Shown here piece after piece: positions 13,535-57,253 of a stretch of 64,000 nt of DNA. Position 1 is the stretch's first letter. The number at the start of each line of letters is the position of its first letter. Location of the stretch: positions 32,674-96,673 of the forward strand of contig CALLAL010000034.1 of NCBI GenBank assembly GCA_938002255.1, in the 5' to 3' direction. The stretch is from an uncultured bacterium. GTDB taxonomy: Bacteria > Desulfobacterota > BSN033 > UBA1163. The notes under the pieces are model-generated. The model was not told the DNA's origin and made no database searches. It saw only the letters and a program-made list of their open reading frames with translations. A program made the translations under genes and the position numbers.

Positions 13535-13617
13535 AGAAGTTACCCTCCTTGGGGGATAAAGTAATGGAATATTAGTATAAACGACAAAAAAAAAGCAAGA
13601 ACATATTATTAGGAAAG

Positions 13618-13839
13618 GTAATCCCTCACAGAGGATCAAAAAAAAGGGTGGGGAGGGTTCTTCGGAAAACCTTTGAAGCGACACCTTTGTCCTTTAAATG
13701 TCCACTGCTTGGTTTTCAAACTCCCGATTCAAAGGGCATGGAGACCCAAGGAGATTGCCTCCTTGCTCGCTTTTCAAGGGTTTGGAGAGGGACCTTTCCC
13801 ACCCTTTTAAACCATCCTACCCCATCACTGAGGGATTAT
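13618..13839 (+). mobile_element. Structured repeat element copy 1 (MITE-like or ncRNA)
   Basis: Ends GTAATCCCTCA...TGAGGGATTAT; flanks TAGGAAAG/TGGGAAAG; long internal hairpin; homologous to 54396-54625. Confidence 0.7.
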
Positions 13840-13958
13840 TGGGAAAGACCGATATGTTCCAGTAATAATAATTTTCTTTACAAATCATGGAAGAGATGTG
13901 ATAAGATATCATCCGATGAGAAAGGAATCCATTGCAACATAGAAGGAAAGGAGGAATT

Positions 13959-51574: not shown

Positions 51575-54241
51575 TTAACACTTCTCGACCCTAACAACTG
51601 ATACTTTTAAGTCAGGGATTTTCGATTCAGGATCGAGTACTGTATTGGTGACGAGATTTACAGGGGTCTCTGCAAAGTGAAATTTTGCAAAAATCACTCC
51701 CCGCGAAACTTTTTCCGTTACTTTCACCCTGGAAGTAAATTCACCTCTTCTACCAATCACTTTGATCTGATCTCCTTCTTTGATTCCAAGCTTCTCTGCA
51801 TCGGAGGGATTTATTTCTACTAAGCTTTCCGGACACATTTGATTAAGAAGTTTCACTTTTCTGGTCATGGAGCCGGCGTGATAATGGTAATAATCTCTTC
51901 CTGTACTCATAATAAACGGAAAATCTTTGTCAGGAACCTCTGGAGGAGGCGTATGGTCTACTGGAACAAACAGCCCTTTTCCCCTTACAATCCTTCCTTT
52001 GTGAAGAAAAGGGGTGCCCGGATGGGTTGTATCAGGACAAGGCCATTGAAGACCTCCGGACTCAAGCCGTGCATAAGTAATTCCTGCATATTGGGGAGTG
52101 ACTTTTCGGATCTCTTCGAAGATCTCTTCTGGATCTTGATAATCCATTGGATATCCGAATCGTGAAGAGAGTTCACAGAGAATCTCCCAGTCCGCGCGAG
52201 CACCTTTAGGTCCACCAATCACCTTTCTAACCCTCTGAACCATCCTCTCGGTATTGACAAAAGTTCCATCCTTCTCAAGAAAGCTGCGTGAGGGAAGGAC
52301 AACATGGGCCAACTTGCCTGTTTCAGTCAGGAAGATATCCTGAACCACCAGAAGTTCTAATTTGCCATAGGCTTTTTTAAGATGCGAAAGGTTTGGATCA
52401 GTGACCATGGGATTTTCTCCCATAATATAGAGTGCTTTAATCTTTCCTTCATAAGCCGCCTCGCCCATTTCGACAACCGTCAATCCTGGTTTATCGGAGA
52501 GGGGAACTCCCCATGCACTCTCAAATTTATCTTTAAACTCTTTTATAGCGACTCCTTGATATCCTGGGTAGACCGTCGGCAGGCAACCCATGTCGCAGGC
52601 TCCTTGCACATTGTTCTGTCCTCTCAAGGGATTGACACCGCTTCCGGGTTTTCCTATCTGACCGCAGAGTAGCGCAAGGTTGGAGATTGCCTTGACTGCA
52701 TCCGTTCCTTTGGAGTGTTGGGTGATACCCATACAGTAAAGGATGGCTGCGTTTTTAGCTGTGGCATATGTCCTTGCTGCATGGATCAGCCGATCTTTGG
52801 GAATTCCTGTGATTTCTTCAACAACCTCTGGCGTGTAATGGGAAACTTTCTCCCTTAAGGCTTCAAATCCTTCTGTATGCTGTTCGATAAAAGGTTTGTT
52901 GTAGAGTTTCTCCTGGATGATGATATGAGCCAGTCCGTTTAACCAAGCAATATCGTCTCCGGGTTTGGGTTGAAGATGGAGGCAAGCCTCTTCGACCAAA
53001 TCAATCTTTCTTGGATCGACCACAATGATTTTGGCTCCATTGAAGCGTGCACGATGTCTCAAGAGCATCCCAATGACAGGATGCGTTTCCGTTGTATTGG
53101 ACCCAGTCACCAGGTAGAGGTCTGCTTTCTTTAGATCTGCAAACGAATTGGTCATGGCTCCAGAACCGAGGGTGGTGGCCAGACCGACCACCGTGCTGGA
53201 GTGTCAGAGACGGGCGCAATGATCAATATTGTTTGTCCCGATTGCTGCACGGATGAATTTTTGGAAGAGATAATTCTCCTCGCAAGTGGCTCTTGCGGAG
53301 GCGAGACCTGCAATGCTATCCGGTCCGTCTTTCTCTTTGATCTCCTTTAATTTGGCTGTCATATAGGTAAGGGCTTCATCCCAGCTTGCTTCTCGAAACC
53401 CACCATTTTCCCGGATGAGAGGTGTGTTCAGCCTCTCAGGGCTCTGAACAAATTCAAAACCAAACCTCCCCTTCACACAGAGGGTTCCATGGTTGGTCCC
53501 TAATCCTTCTCGTGTGGTGACCTTAATAAGCTTATCGCGAACAACATTGACTTCCAGAGAACAGCCGACTCCGCAATATCCACATACAGTGGTCACCCGT
53601 TTCGCCTGCCATTTCCTTCCTTTGAGGGAGCTCACATTTTCGGTGAGGGCTCCCACAGGACATGCGGCAAGACATTCCCCGCAGGAGATGCATCTCTCTG
53701 GTCTGACGGCTTCGACCCTTGCACGAAAACCGGTTTCGATCAGATCAAGAACCTCCCTGCCAGCAATCTCTCTGCAGGCCCGAATGCAGCGGCTGCAGAG
53801 AATGCATCGATTGGGATGATACTTGATCGCAGAGGTAGAATAGGTTCGATATTCTTTCGGTTTGATTTCGACTTGGTATTCCGCTTTTTCAATTCCATAT
53901 TCATAGACATAATCCTGGAGATCACATTCTCCTCCCTTGTCACACACCGGACAATCAAGAGGATGGTTCACTAACATGAATTTCAGCACTTCTTTTCTAA
54001 TCTCCCGAATCTTTGGAGTATCGGTCTCGATCACCATGCCATCCACGGCTGGCGTGTTGCAGGCGGTGACAGGATTCTGAAGGCCATTGACTTCAACGAC
54101 ACACATCCTGCAAAAGCCTGTTGGAATGAGGCTCTCCATGTGGCACAGCGTGGGGATGCGGAATCCATTTTCTTTGGCAATCTTTAAAATGGTAGCACCT
54201 TCGGCGGTCTCAATAGCTCTGCCATTGATGGTGATTCTCAT
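51575..54241 (-). CDS. fdhA: Selenocysteine-containing formate dehydrogenase alpha subunit (~888 aa)
   Basis: Two track ORFs joined in frame at TGA 53204-53206: NIDHCARL-U-HSSTV. N-terminal 2Fe-2S and HPLDCPVC clusters, CGYCGVGC, LRGQNNVQG; no Tat signal. Confidence 0.92.
53176..53203 (-). promoter_or_regulatory. SECIS element of fdhA
   Basis: GGUGGUC-GGUCU-GGCCACC hairpin about 11 nt after the UGA. Confidence 0.8.
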
Positions 54242-54320
54242 CGTGATCCTCTCCTTTTAAAAATTGGACAATTCCTCTTAAAAAATATTCTTGTGAAGCT
54301 CGCCATATTGGATTTTAACT

Positions 54321-54375
54321 TTGTGAAATATTTAATTAGCCACTAATCAATAGAACAACCTATTTAATTTGTCAA
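54321..54375 (-). promoter_or_regulatory. fdhA promoter with Rex-like site
   Basis: Minus strand TTGACA at 54370-54375 with a weak -10; TTGTGAA-ATAT-TTAATTA at 54321-54338. Confidence 0.4.
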
Positions 54376-54395
54376 GTAAAAAAAAGGGGGGCTGT

Positions 54396-54625
54396 GTAAC
54401 CCCTCAGTTAAAGAAATAAAAAAGGGGTGGGAGGTTGCTTCGGAAAAACCTTGAAGCGCGAAACCTCTGTTCGTTAAAACGACCCAATCTGATTCAAAAA
54501 AATCCGATTCAAAGGGCATGAGGGCCCTGATGGGGGTAACCCCTTTTATAACCGCTATTCAAGGTTTTGGAGGAGGAACGTTCCAACCCTTTTAAACCGA
54601 AAACACCCCATCACTGAGGGATTAC
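54396..54625 (+). mobile_element. Structured repeat element copy 2 (MITE-like or ncRNA)
   Basis: Ends GTAACCCCTCAGT...ACTGAGGGATTAC; flanks GGGGGCTGT/GGGAGCTGT; homologous to 13618-13839. Confidence 0.7.
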
Positions 54626-54864
54626 GGGAGCTGTGTAAAAAATCCGAAAATCTTTTTTGATTTAAATGAAAAAGAGGTAATGGATTTAAAACATATTGAA
54701 AATAAAAGATAATTGTAAAATTATGTTTAATTTTTTCCCCATCGGGAAACTAAACAAAAAGAGGGTTCTTAAAACGTTTTATGAAAAACTTGACAGACAC
54801 CAGTCGTTTTGAATATTCTACTCTTTCAAGCTTTAAGGGATTTCTTCTGGAAAAGAATTTAAAT

Positions 54865-55704
54865 ATGAGATTTGGTTTTCATATTTCTATTGCCGGAGGG
54901 TTTTCCAAGATCCTGGAAAGGGCAAACATTCGGGAATGTGAGACGATTCAATTCTTCTCCAGGAACCCGAGAGGATGGAGGTATGATCCTCTGGACCAAA
55001 ATGAAGTGAAGAGCTTTCGAAAGGCTATTCAAGCCTCCATTCTCTCCCCCGTCTTCCTTCATCTCCCTTACCTCCCAAACCTCGCCTCAAAGAAGTCAAA
55101 ATTTTATCGCCCTTCTATCGACTCCGTTGTGATTGATCTCGAAAGGGCTGAGCAGTTAGGGGTTCCATATCTGATTAGTCATATCGGTCATCGCCTGGAT
55201 TCTTCCGAAGAGGAAGCGATCGAGGCTGTCATAGAGGCCATCAATCAGGCATTCGATCGAGTAAGAAACACCATCATCCTCCTGCTTGAAAACACGGCCG
55301 GTCAGGGATCAGAAATTGGTTATGAGTTTAGTCAAATTAAAAAAATCATCAAAGGGATTGATGCAAAGGAGAGGATAGGAATCTGTCTTGACGTTGCTCA
55401 TGCCTTTGAAGCGGGATATGATCTTTCGAACCAAGAAGGAATTGATCGAACTCTCGAATCATTTGATCAAATGGTCGGCTTGAGGAAACTCCACCTTCTT
55501 CACCTCAATGATTCCAAAACTCCTCTGGGCTCAAGAAAGGATAGGCATTGGCACATTGGTGAGGGTTATATAGGTCTGGAGGGATTCCGATATTTAATCA
55601 ACCATCCGCAATTAACACACCTTCCTGGCATTATGGAGACTCCAAGAAATGATACGGTGGAAGATTTGAAGAATATGAAAGTGATCCGTAGCCTGCTGGA
55701 GTAA
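54865..55704 (+). CDS. nfo: Endonuclease IV
   Basis: GFHISIAGG, HLPYLPNL, LENTAGQG, CLDVAH, HLNDSK, DRHWHIG, MET. Confidence 0.93.
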   Translation: MRFGFHISIAGGFSKILERANIRECETIQFFSRNPRGWRYDPLDQNEVKSFRKAIQASILSPVFLHLPYLPNLASKKSKFYRPSIDSVVIDLERAEQLGVPYLISHIGHRLDSSEEEAIEAVIEAINQAFDRVRNTIILLLENTAGQGSEIGYEFSQIKKIIKGIDAKERIGICLDVAHAFEAGYDLSNQEGIDRTLESFDQMVGLRKLHLLHLNDSKTPLGSRKDRHWHIGEGYIGLEGFRYLINHPQLTHLPGIMETPRNDTVEDLKNMKVIRSLLE

Positions 55705-55711
55705 TTGAAAA

Positions 55712-57253
55712 TTGTCCATCCTCTTCTTGATTCATCCTCCGATTTCCAAACCGAGCGAACCTCCAGCAGGGATTGCAAAATTATCCGGGCTCCTCCACCC
55801 ATATGAATTAAAACCAAGAGTACTTGACGCCAATATCGAAGGTCTCTTAAATTTATTGACATCCTCTCCTTCCGCTTCGGATACCTGGACCCTCCGAGCC
55901 CTTTGCCATCTTCCAAAACATCTCGATTCATTGAGGGGTTGGATCGCTTATAAAAACCAGGACCATTATCGGCGGACCATCCTGGATCTAAACCGACTTC
56001 TTGCGATGACCACACACCCATATAGAGTGCGACTGAGTCTGGTGAATTACGAACATAACGTTCTCTCTCCTGTAAGAAGCCAGGATCTGATCAGGGTCGC
56101 TGAGCGTCCTGAGGAAAATCCCTTCTATCCTTACTTTAAGGAACGGCTCACCAAACTGATTGAAAAAGAGTCACCCCCCTTGGTCGGTTTTTCGCTCAAC
56201 TACTTAAGTCAGGCTCTCTGCACCTTCGCCATGGTCGGTTTCCTGAAGCGTGAATGGCCAGAGATCAAATTGGTCCTGGGAGGAGGGCTAGTCACTTCAT
56301 GGATGAGAAGACCTCACTGGCAAAATCCCTTTGAAAGTTTAGTGGATCATCTTGTAGATGGACCAGGAGAGGTCCCTTTGCTCAGGCTGACAGGGATAGA
56401 GAAAGTAGCAAATATCATCTATCCGCCCGTTTATGATTCCTTTCCTCTGAAAGATTACTTTGCTCCTGGCTTTATTCTTCCCTATAGTGCCTCCAGAGGA
56501 TGCTACTGGAATCAATGCTCATTCTGCCCTGAACGGGCCGAAGGCAATGCTTATCACGCCTTGACTCCAAACCTGATCATTCAGGACCTTTCTCAACTTA
56601 TATTAAAACATCAACCGGTTCTCATCCATTTACTGGACAATGCTCTCCCTCCGTCCTTGATGCAAGCCATGATCAAACATCCTTTGGGAGTCCCATGGTA
56701 TGGCTTTGCAAGATTCACCTCCCACCTCACCGATCCGGATTTCTGTCTTGCTTTAAGGCAATCCGGATGCGTAATGTTAAAACTGGGGCTGGAGTCAGGA
56801 GACCAGAAAGTGCTCGACGCTCTTCAAAAGGGGATTGATCTTAAAGAAGCTTCCCTTGCTTTAAGAAATCTAAAGAGGGCAGGAATTGCAACCTATCTCT
56901 ATCTCCTGTTTGGGACTCCTCCGGAAGGACAGAAGGAAGCGAGAAAAACGCTTCAGTTTGTGGTAAGGCATCAGGAGTGCATCGATTTCCTGAACCTTGC
57001 CATTTTCAACATGCCGGTCTATGGACCGGAAACCCATCAGATCGAGACAGAACCCTTTTATGAAGGAGACCTCTCCCTTTATACCGGCTTTCATCATCCC
57101 AAAGGCTGGAGCCGACCCTTGGTCCGACAATTTCTGGACAAGGAATTGAAAAGGCATCCTGCCATTTCACCGATTGTGCGAAGAACTCCTCCAGCCTTCA
57201 CCTCTAACCACGCCCCCTTCTTTGCTAGGGATGAAGGTTTTTGGTTAAAATAG
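55712..57253 (+). CDS. Radical SAM protein with B12-binding-like N-terminal region
   Basis: HPP...P, SRGCYWNQCSFC, GLESGDQKVL, YLLFGTP. Confidence 0.82.
   Translation: MSILFLIHPPISKPSEPPAGIAKLSGLLHPYELKPRVLDANIEGLLNLLTSSPSASDTWTLRALCHLPKHLDSLRGWIAYKNQDHYRRTILDLNRLLAMTTHPYRVRLSLVNYEHNVLSPVRSQDLIRVAERPEENPFYPYFKERLTKLIEKESPPLVGFSLNYLSQALCTFAMVGFLKREWPEIKLVLGGGLVTSWMRRPHWQNPFESLVDHLVDGPGEVPLLRLTGIEKVANIIYPPVYDSFPLKDYFAPGFILPYSASRGCYWNQCSFCPERAEGNAYHALTPNLIIQDLSQLILKHQPVLIHLLDNALPPSLMQAMIKHPLGVPWYGFARFTSHLTDPDFCLALRQSGCVMLKLGLESGDQKVLDALQKGIDLKEASLALRNLKRAGIATYLYLLFGTPPEGQKEARKTLQFVVRHQECIDFLNLAIFNMPVYGPETHQIETEPFYEGDLSLYTGFHHPKGWSRPLVRQFLDKELKRHPAISPIVRRTPPAFTSNHAPFFARDEGFWLK

Follow-up and report, generated by a model that had tools for sequence, protein, structure and literature searches.

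A transposase-less MITE family with a one-strand conserved stem, probably mobilised by IS66-type enzymes, upstream of promoters in an uncultured bacterium

Introduction

Bacterial MITEs, among them Correia/NEMIS of Neisseria, ERIC, Nezha of cyanobacteria and MITEAba12, are small elements that lack a transposase, share inverted repeats with insertion sequences and duplicate their target sites. They occur in many intergenic copies, at sites filled in some relatives and empty in others, and they form a long RNA-type hairpin, which the review PMC3184786 treats as a classic feature of such elements. Here we describe a family that resembles them in all these respects, two members of which lie in a 64,000-nucleotide stretch of DNA (the window) from an uncultured bacterium. 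It departs from the described MITEs in three ways: its core shows no relationship to the sampled partner elements and is more conserved than the ends; its pairing is kept across genera by compensation with a G-U bias on one strand; and it inserts at a set spacing from -35 boxes. The mismatch between core and partner, the cross-genus pairing on one strand and the fixed -35 distance were not found together in those parts of the MITE literature that were examined.

The ends of the family place it close to the ISBst12 group of IS66 elements (e.g. ISDge4), in which ends likewise begin GTAAC..CTCAG and an 8-bp target duplication is made (PMC12898284 and PMC11946415). For ISDge4 itself the ends are given as GTAACTGCTCAGCA, the transposase as 449 aa long and the target duplication as 8 bp (PMC12898284); IS66 is reported with ends beginning GTAAGCG and 8-bp repeats (PMC11946415). 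Unlike these elements, the present one is a MITE without transposase and has only 13–21 terminal bases in common with its IS66-type relatives.

A fixed insertion distance is familiar from another quarter. TnGBS, ISLre2 and ISKra4-group elements insert at a constant 15–17 bp ahead of the -35 box in sigma-A promoters, and those of the ISKra4 group, whose inverted repeats are near-perfect, do so in either orientation (PMC3942029). The present family shares the fixed-distance insertion, here with a gap of 19 bp and in both orientations, but those elements use Mutator-like transposases whereas its own probable partners belong to the IS66 superfamily; because the superfamilies differ, the promoter-targeting trait would have arisen independently. 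For the stem, integron attC sites, 6S RNA and the single-strand origins of rolling-circle plasmids offer a lead on mechanism: each is a long imperfect hairpin that works on one strand only and has conserved unpaired bases. We claim no membership in any of these, and Rfam, which includes 6S RNA, gave no match.

In our estimate there is roughly a three-in-four chance that the observations below are jointly explained by a MITE with IS66-type mobilisation and promoter-upstream targeting, whose stem is selected as a one-strand module for the propagation or retention of the element.

Results and discussion

Copies, ends and target duplications

The two window copies (Table 1) are members of a transposase-less MITE family with about 65 full-length copies in the genome. 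A preliminary description of the window had reported a twice-present element of ~225 nt, which is true of the window itself; a search of the whole draft genome (G000; 59 contigs, 98.5% complete, 3.3 Mb) located 80 matches, of which 65 are full length. The 58 copies bounded by repeats on both sides measure 222–231 bp and share a 13-bp terminal inverted repeat with the consensus GTAACCCCTCAGT / ACTGAGGGGTTAC. An 8-bp target duplication flanks them without mismatch in 29 cases, with one mismatch in 16 and with two in three, so that 45/58 have at most one, and the same 58 copies gave no duplication signal at 6, 7, 9 or 10 bp. Among copies in sister species, 21 of 32 carry a target duplication at this stringency. 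The terminal inverted repeats and duplication-like flanks first noticed in the window are properties of the family as a whole. Mean identity among copies is 92.7%, the core being better conserved than the ends, and the longest stop-free frame spans only 47–75 codons (38 copies), so no transposase gene is present. Searches of plasmids and phages returned no match to the core. Partial matches to the first 70–85 bases in sister genomes were considered as ends of autonomous elements and rejected, since ordinary genes flank them; they are solo fragments.

Table 1. Features of the two window copies and their flanks.
Feature	Position	Strand	Remarks
MITE copy 1, divergent family member	13618..13839	+	222 bp
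Left target-site duplication, copy 1 (TAGGAAAG)	13610..13617	.	7/8 match to 13840-13847
Right target-site duplication, copy 1 (TGGGAAAG)	13840..13847	.	7/8 match to 13610-13617
Left terminal inverted repeat, copy 1 (GTAATCCCTCACA)	13618..13630	+	family consensus GTAACCCCTCAGT
Right terminal inverted repeat, copy 1 (ACTGAGGGATTAT)	13827..13839	+	sequence and family-wide repeat analysis
5' arm of long stem, copy 1	13642..13681	+	P1a 13642-13663, internal loop GG(A), P1b/P1c to 13681; predicted fold and covariation
3' arm of long stem, copy 1	13769..13808	+	P1c/P1b, internal loop GGA, P1a 13787-13808; predicted fold and covariation
-35-like hexamer TTGCTT, leftward P-type ATPase gene	13593..13598	-	first base 20 positions from copy 1 end
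MITE copy 2, near family consensus	54396..54625	+	230 bp; 93-96% identity to other copies
Left target-site duplication, copy 2 (GGGGCTGT)	54388..54395	.	sequence and family-wide duplication analysis
Right target-site duplication, copy 2 (GGGAGCTGT)	54626-54634	.	one base inserted or changed relative to left
-35 hexamer TTGACA, leftward Fe-S/formate-dehydrogenase-like gene	54370..54375	-	21 positions from copy 2 end

Copy 1 starts with GTAATCCCTCAC... at 13618 and ends with ...ACTGAGGGATTAT at 13839. Its mean column identity to copy 2 is 79%, and it is about 73% identical to the rest of the family. Every feature named in the preliminary description is present in the sequence where it had been placed: the shared blocks are identical in the two copies, and the near-direct repeats flanking copy 1 agree at seven of eight positions. 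Empty loci exist for both insertions, in four sister species for copy 1 (G012, G006, G009, G003) and in nine for copy 2. The promoter block beside copy 2 is kept in all 11 aligned species, element present or absent, and the GCAAG block at the copy 1 hexamer is kept in four element-free sister species. Four DNA read runs assembled over window positions 52500-56500 contained no contig spanning an empty site at copy 2. Contigs derived from these reads stop at the ends of the copy 2 element, as expected for a repeat.

The partner transposase

No IS66 transposase (PF03050, NF033517) was matched in the draft genome, an absence that is not established because repeats are often left unassembled, and a search among repeat-bounded pairs 260–8000 bp apart revealed no credible autonomous element there. 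ISKra4 and ISLre2 transposases are likewise not assembled in this genome, and no transposase of these three families was found in the other copy-rich genome (G001). IS66 transposase matches do occur in seven of 12 sister species, and it is in these genomes that transposase genes bounded by the same ends were found. A 1494-bp element (L186, in G007) carries a truncated IS66 transposase between perfect copies of GTAACCCCTCAGT, and an 1858-bp element (L082, in G002) encodes a 450-aa DDE_Tnp_IS66 protein (E = 6.3e-40); the 13-bp ends of the MITE are the terminal 13 bases of both. At a further locus (L086, in G005) the transposase C-terminus is followed by ...ACCCCGTAACTGAGGGATTAC, and the right end of a sister-species MITE agrees with it at 19 of 21 bases and with L186 at 20 of 21. 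The ends are common to the MITE and the autonomous elements L186, L082, L086 and L183. More widely, among 80 metagenome loci that encode related transposases, 52 have ends of the GTAAC(C/T)..TCAGT type. The partner elements are 1.3–3.0 kb long with a single DDE_Tnp_IS66 open reading frame of ~450 aa. IS66-family ends listed in the ISfinder tables start with GTAA, and the repeats there are 8–9 bp.

Because no such transposase is assembled in the genome that houses the window, it is from the sister genomes that we infer mobilisation of the MITE in trans by an IS66-family, ISBst12-like DDE transposase. Such an enzyme would recognise the 13-bp ends GTAACCCCTCAGT and would cut its target with an 8-bp stagger. 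The likeness between the MITE and these insertion sequences is confined to the terminal 13–21 bases: a covariance model of the core matched none of 84 loci with autonomous elements, and the MITE interior is not that of a deletion derivative of any sampled partner.

The partner could instead be a Mutator-like ISKra4 or ISLre2 enzyme, from families known for promoter targeting. ISKra4-group elements do insert upstream of promoters in either orientation (PMC3942029), and ISKra4-type transposase genes occur in nine of 55 genomes of the same taxonomic family. We nevertheless regard this as hardly credible. None of the four ISKra4 loci examined is bounded by MITE ends (single hits with three mismatches, at chance level, in three of them and zero in the fourth), and MITE-type ends do bound elements that carry DDE_Tnp_IS66 genes. 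ISKra4 and ISLre2 genes are both absent from the assembly, although the ISLre2 search matched none of 14 control genomes, so that blank is weak.

Insertion upstream of promoters

The 58 repeat-bounded elements provide 116 flanks, in which we scored as a -35 hit any match to TTGACA at five or more of six positions; an offset of +20 means that the element end lies exactly 19 bp from the -35 box. Such hits fall at +20 in 34 of the 116 flanks, at +21 in six, at +19 in three, and at every other offset in three or fewer. In all, 40/58 elements have a -35 flank of this kind, the hexamer being missing at the expected offset in 18/58. Downstream of it stands a -10 of the type TG-n-TAAnaT at the right spacing, and the gene on the -35 side is oriented away from the element in 37 of 42 cases. 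The TTGCTT beside copy 1 matches TTGACA at only four of six positions and, with the cut-off at 5/6, was left out of the counted hits. A large survey found the IS66 family over-represented between convergent genes (PMC9208149); the present clade, in contrast, lies at promoters, and the gene contexts of 56 elements are divergent in 24 cases, tandem in 30 and convergent in only two.

The same geometry recurs beyond this genome. In sister species the +20 offset is found in 15 of 71 flanks, and it reappears in elements of other genera. Autonomous relatives in metagenomes have it in 28 of 104 flanks (three at +21, two or fewer elsewhere), with the left and right sides of the element represented about equally (L 15, R 16). 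A multicopy IS66-like element of G008 has other ends and no TTGACA at +20 (0 of 13), and was used as a negative control. That MITE and autonomous relatives share one offset shows that target choice belongs to the transposase clade. We also considered the core as a 6S-like guide to promoters, which is disfavoured because autonomous relatives that have no such core show the +20 offset too.

A +20 peak might also arise by survival rather than targeting, if insertion took place anywhere and only harmless spots upstream of promoters were retained. All 58 copies are intergenic on a rough gene map, as purifying selection would also produce. We find this account very unlikely, since selection for harmless sites cannot give an offset sharp to a single base (34 flanks at +20 against six or fewer elsewhere). 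Moreover, the offset is the same in other genera and in unrelated metagenome contigs with autonomous relatives, it is lacking in another insertion sequence of the same genus (0/13), and one and the same promoter has been struck by two different subfamilies in G000 and G004.

In the targeting that we favour, integration is steered to one set position ahead of sigma-70-type promoters. There the order is the duplicated 8-bp target, 11 bp that are often a T-run, and the TTGACA -35 box, which places the cuts near -47 and -55 of the promoter; either end of the element can face it. By analogy with TnGBS, the position may be found through direct reading of TTTTTnCTTGACA, or because the transposase touches RNA polymerase bound at the promoter or the DNA that the polymerase bends.

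Fold and covariation of the long stem

Copy 1 has a minimum-energy fold of -97.5 kcal/mol (z = -5.7), which none of 200 shuffles equals. It contains the 22-bp stem and the further helix AAACCTTTGAA/TTCAAGGGTTT that had been proposed for it, the former pairing 13642-13663 with 13787-13808, together with the side hairpin CAAGGAG/CTCCTTG; for copy 2 the fold is -83.1 kcal/mol (z = -3.85). Only part of this architecture belongs to the family. The proposed junction helix TGTCCTTT/AAAGGGCA, like the side hairpin, is private to copy 1: over 38 members the two are 65.7% paired, a value that 418 of 500 shuffles reach. The long stem behaves differently. In a plain MAFFT alignment of the same number of copies its 30 pairs form three helices that are 96.7–98.8% paired, 11 of the 30 pairs have changed on both sides, none of 500 shuffles reaches any of the pairing measures, and slid partners attain at most 62%. 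Beyond the genus the stem sequence is almost wholly different and the pairing is retained: across 71 elements from ~25 genomes, in an alignment that was fitted to the structure, two or more Watson–Crick types occur at 21 of the 30 pairs, and the 3' internal loop is GGA in 63 of 71 elements. The covariation anticipated for the fold thus resides in the long stem, in both alignments.

Its pairing is strand-specific. Cell counts in the 38-copy alignment are 985 Watson–Crick, 137 G-U and 5 A-C, and in the 71-element alignment 1877, 182 and 16, bearing in mind that the copies are related, so that such counts overstate the independent events, and that the strand of distant members was set by a model which leans towards G-U over A-C. 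Pairs of the terminal repeats in the 71 elements have no such bias (G-U 47, A-C 58). The excess of G-U over A-C in the stem, 182 to 16, means that selection acts on one of the strands in its single-stranded state: it is the + strand, of fixed polarity, as the G-U wobbles of copy 1 had suggested. Scores of the whole covariance model are 187.8 bits on the + strand against 33.7 on the - strand for copy 1, and 194.7 against 49.5 for copy 2. Of 84 elements only 54 have a whole-element folding energy that favours the + strand, and among distant elements the figure is 17 of 32; this is a weak comparison, on which the strand claim is not based. Mutation bias was dismissed as a source of the G-U excess on the reasoning that the usual replication bias on the mostly occupied strand favours A-C. 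Read-through transcription was dismissed as a source of the strand bias, tandem contexts being sense in 12 cases and antisense in 18.

Could the paired stem be a functionless by-product? Template switching during replication corrects quasipalindromes, and together with recent common ancestry this might mimic compensation. As DNA, the stem does amount to a long inverted repeat, the orientation of copies is non-random with respect to replication-type GC skew (44/57), which ties the element to replication, and related sequences inflate the counts in the alignments. Template switching should, however, remove G-T and A-C alike, which is at odds with stem ratios of 137:5 and 182:16 beside 47:58 in the terminal repeats; in addition, the unpaired GGA loops are conserved on both arms, and pairing persists through near-complete change of the stem sequence between genera. 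We therefore consider a by-product unlikely.

What the core may do

The alternative put forward in the preliminary description, an undescribed structured non-coding RNA, would make the element a host gene family, with a core that is functional at each locus and transposon ends that merely spread it. Such a reading would suit the strong covariation on one strand, the conserved GGA/GGA internal loop, a core more conserved than the ends, and the lack of relationship between this core and the sampled autonomous elements. Several observations weigh against it. A simple scan detected no promoter-like site inside either window copy, and the copies are placed upstream of promoters directed away from the element. 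Orientation relative to neighbouring genes is random (12 against 18 in tandem contexts), which argues against a routinely transcribed + strand. No Rfam family matched at gathering score over the whole window, and permissive scans around both copies yielded chance-level matches only (E = 0.8 or worse, 9–18 bits). Resident copies, moreover, decay almost neutrally: within the family of this genome stem sites change at 3.25% and unpaired sites at 5.1%, and most stem changes break pairs, namely 58 of the 99 in consensus Watson–Crick pairs with gaps set aside (18 from Watson–Crick to A-C, 40 to other mismatches). A host RNA gene family is accordingly, in our view, quite improbable, slightly more so than a stem without function.

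Inverted repeats, 8-bp duplications, empty sites, transposases with the same ends in sister genomes and covariation of the stem all support the other proposal of that description, in which the element is a non-autonomous transposon with a selected fold. In the mechanism that we favour, the ends enclose a core of ~190 nt, unrelated to the sampled autonomous elements, in which a 30-bp interrupted stem with its GGA/GGA loop is kept by compensatory change, G-U being tolerated on the + strand and A-C not. The stem is preserved in lineages that went on spreading, whereas single resident copies decay almost neutrally, and from this pairing of observations we infer that it serves the propagation or retention of the element rather than a host function at each locus. 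It may do so either in the form of RNA or in that of single-stranded DNA at replication or transposition; this is the least certain step of the mechanism.

A more specific and speculative idea, which we hold only tentatively and think doubtful, is that the core is a polarity-specific single-stranded module (RNA, or ssDNA exposed at the replication fork) read by the machinery of the IS66 clade or by the replisome, and so a cis-acting enhancer of mobilisation. If true, the core would enable an element that lacks a transposase to compete for the enzyme, and would fix its orientation relative to replication, and reading of the enhancer would account for a core kept more strictly than the ends. No structured nucleic-acid cofactor would have been described before it for an IS66-family DDE transposon.

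Conclusions

Promoter targeting is already known for the Mutator-like TnGBS, ISLre2 and ISKra4 elements; for IS66 it was not found in the literature covered by full-text word searches, and the supplementary tables of PMC3942029 may list further elements. The same geometry in an unrelated IS66-family clade that is common in environmental metagenomes points to a convergent 'safe harbour' strategy, and offers a second system for studying how transposases locate promoters. MITE hairpins are usually seen as the passive outcome of inverted ends; here a core has been kept paired across genera on one strand, and the functionality of MITE structure becomes directly testable. The family should be made known to annotation pipelines, to keep its members from being called as novel sRNAs. 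For the organism itself, some 65 insertions replace the DNA upstream from about -47 of promoters in a 3.3-Mb genome, and could thereby reshape regulation in this uncultured lineage.

A mobile element with IS66-type ends

The element present twice in the window (see table) is a transposon, a MITE with IS66-type ends. Both stretches were found on re-reading as the preliminary description gave them, and a search of the window's own genome (G000; a 3.27-Mb draft in 59 contigs) with both copies returned 80 matching places, of which 65 are full-length copies. Mean pairwise identity within the family is 92.7% (57 copies); copy 2 is a typical member and copy 1 an outlier at ~73% identity. The MITE consensus starts with GTAACCCCTCAGT and ends with ACTGAGGGGTTAC; 58 copies are delimited by this pair, nearly all of them 222–231 bp long, and no conserved reading frame was found within the elements. 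The 8 bases flanking each end are identical in 29 of the 58 copies, with one difference in 16 and two in three, and no duplication signal was seen at 6, 7, 9 or 10 bp. The element is also mobile: the copy 2 locus is empty in nine sister species, which retain the flanking genes and promoter block, and the copy 1 locus has empty counterparts in four. A non-autonomous transposon whose fold is under selection had been the first of the two readings offered from the sequence, and it is borne out by the duplications, the empty sites and the covariation presented below.

MITE copies in the window and IS elements that carry MITE ends
Element	Genome	Position or length	Content	Ends and flanks
MITE copy 1	G000	window 13618-13839, + strand		GTAATCCCTCAC at 13618 to ACTGAGGGATTAT at 13839; flanks TAGGAAAG and TGGGAAAG
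MITE copy 2	G000	window 54396-54625, + strand		
L186	G007	1494 bp	truncated IS66 transposase	perfect GTAACCCCTCAGT at each end
L082	G002	1858-bp element	450-aa DDE_Tnp_IS66 protein (E = 6.3e-40) and DUF6788 protein	
L086	G005		transposase C-terminus	...ACCCCGTAACTGAGGGATTAC after the C-terminus
L183	G051	2435-bp element		GTAATGCCTCAGT

Variant forms were also encountered. On contigs of three DNA runs an element form lacks 143 internal bases (window 54431–54575), a gap spanning from inside the 5' arm of the stem to inside its 3' arm, and at G000:C30:56564-56856 a full copy and a short derivative stand in head-to-tail order, the 8-bp TTTTTCTG being common to both. A public contig labelled as an unrelated group (L141) matches a G000 contig at 99.99% identity across 7218 bases and, beyond the element, runs on into a different G000 contig; it was counted as not independent of G000.

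No IS66-type gene is assembled in the draft G000; seven of 12 sister species have IS66-type matches, and the MITE ends are carried by four elements (L186, L082, L086 and L183). The right end of a sister-species MITE agrees with L086 at 19 of 21 bases and with L186 at 20 of 21, and from this latter match alone the MITE + strand is tentatively equated with the transposase-sense strand. Likeness to the IS elements ends after 13–21 bases. Features published for the ISBst12 group and IS66 agree with these elements (PMC12898284, PMC11946415), and the MITE appears to be mobilized in trans by an IS66-type enzyme. Transposases of the ISKra4 type also occur in the same taxonomic family of bacteria; they were rejected as the partner, the MITE ends being absent from all four ISKra4 loci examined. 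The contig bearing L082 (G002:C152, 1866 bases) wraps round the complete IS66-type element, and at bases 1–45 and 1830–1866 the element's right end meets its left end across 8 bp (GGCGACCG); a circle junction, a tandem copy and an assembly artefact are all possible sources of this arrangement.

Insertion upstream of -35 boxes

The 58 copies have 116 flanks. With all of these anchored at the element ends, a -35-like hexamer (TTGACA matched at five or six positions) started at +20 in 34 of them, at +21 in six and at +19 in three, with every other offset seen at most three times. Such a flank occurs in 40 of the 58 elements, on both sides in three, with 25 matches at the right end and 18 at the left. 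Of genes on the hexamer side, 37 of 42 point away from the element, versus 42 of 72 on the other sides. The reconstructed target consists of the 8-bp duplicated site (no consensus), ..TTTTTnC, TTGACA and, at -10 spacing, TG-n-TAAnaT. Judged from a rough gene map, the gene context is divergent for 24 elements, tandem for 30 and convergent for two, and no element falls within a long reading frame. The same offset recurs in sister species (15 of 71 flanks) and in other genera, with subfamily-specific shifts where the model boundary differs from the true end. Elements of one genus (L200, L207, L209, L210, L212 and L213, in G046) hold the core within an extra inner inverted repeat (GTNACGGGTGGAA...), are ~245 bp long with the usual ends ~11 bases further out, and have -35 boxes at +31 or +32 from the model boundary.

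Relatives of the L183 transposase, 55–84% identical, were taken from 80 metagenome contigs, 52 of which contain GTAAC(C/T)..TCAGT end pairs 1.3–3.0 kb apart. Here the hexamer stands at +20 in 28 of 104 distinct flanks and at +21 in three (other offsets at most two), with 15 matches at one end and 16 at the other. In another genome, G008, a different IS66-like element, also multicopy, has TTGACA at +20 in none of 13 flanks. These autonomous relatives decisively, together with the G008 element, indicate that targeting is a property of the transposase clade, inherited by the MITE; the mode of promoter recognition by the transposase is one that we infer. The G008 element ends ...AAAGAGCTAAAGTGATAC and breaks the assembly at at least 13 contig ends (among them L169–L181).

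The closest precedent is the Mutator-like group of TnGBS, ISLre2 and ISKra4, which insert 15–17 bp upstream of -35 boxes and for which contact with the polymerase initiation complex was proposed (PMC3942029). According to a large survey, the IS66 family overall lies predominantly between convergent genes (PMC9208149). Word searches of the literature found no report of promoter-upstream targeting by IS66.

At copy 2's promoter, a sister locus (L146, G004:C14, orthologous to window ~54370–54470) holds an element that belongs to another subfamily and is truncated; the same GTCAAG block is 18 bp away. We read it as a second, independent insertion, which suggests that a single promoter has been hit independently more than once. 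The promoter block of the leftward Fe-S/formate-dehydrogenase-like gene (window 54320–54380) hardly varies in 11 species, and the sequence beyond it could not be aligned among them; the minus strand of the block has TTGACA, 17 bases, TATTGA and a conserved stretch ending CACAAAG.

A covarying stem in the core

Both window copies fold far better than shuffled sequence (copy 1, -97.5 kcal/mol, z = -5.7; copy 2, -83.1 kcal/mol, z = -3.85), and no Rfam family matched, either across the entire window at curated thresholds or in a permissive scan around each copy. Run on 38 copies, plainly aligned and drawn from eight genomes, RNAalifold recovered a long stem of 30 pairs, whose three helices are paired at 98.8, 98.5 and 96.7%, with both-side changes in 11 of the 30 pairs; the terminal repeats are less well paired (86%). 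None of 500 shuffles reached the observed stem values, and slid partners pair at 62% at most. The stem cells comprise 985 Watson–Crick, 137 G-U, five A-C and 13 other combinations, a tally that, like all stem counts here, is inflated by relatedness of the copies.

Searches with a covariance model derived from these 38 aligned copies detected the family in 42 of the 54 other genomes belonging to this taxonomic family and in none of 13 from two neighbouring families. In distant genera the stem sequence is almost wholly different and pairing is kept: 71 elements, in an alignment fitted to the structure and with the strand of distant members chosen by the model, give 1877 Watson–Crick, 182 G-U and 16 A-C cells, with at least two Watson–Crick types in 21 of 30 pairs. 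The terminal-repeat pairs of the same elements include 47 G-U and 58 A-C. Between the two main helices the unpaired bases are GGA in 51 of 71 elements for the 5' arm and in 63 of 71 for the 3' arm. The inner junction helix and side hairpin proposed in the preliminary description find no support in this family comparison, and by the folding energy of the whole element the + strand is favoured in only 54 of 84.

Orientation, selection and the core

In G000, window copies included, 44 of 57 copies (p = 4.7e-5) have their + strand on the strand whose replication-type GC skew is negative, a figure with the coding-strand effect removed, from a draft genome with replication direction inferred from skew alone; raw skew gives 47 of 58. 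The bias is independent of which end faces the promoter, and other genomes follow the same trend, which is not significant (28 of 44; 8-kb windows, raw skew). It might reflect oriented integration at the fork, or possibly loss of copies with the stronger hairpin on the lagging-strand template.

The core model has no match in 84 loci holding autonomous elements; the core is thus specific to the MITE and, since autonomous relatives find promoters in its absence, dispensable for targeting. In the young G000 family, change per site is 3.25% in the stem versus 5.1% at unpaired sites, and Watson–Crick stem pairs became G-U 35 times, A-C 18 times and other non-pairs 40 times. Given these changes, resident copies decay under little constraint and it is the spreading lineages that keep the stem. 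Within a known kind of element, three features are new: an IS66 clade that inserts upstream of promoters, a foreign core whose stem is strictly conserved on one strand, and copies whose orientation is biased with respect to replication. We infer that the stem serves the element's own spread or retention, and not the host at each site.
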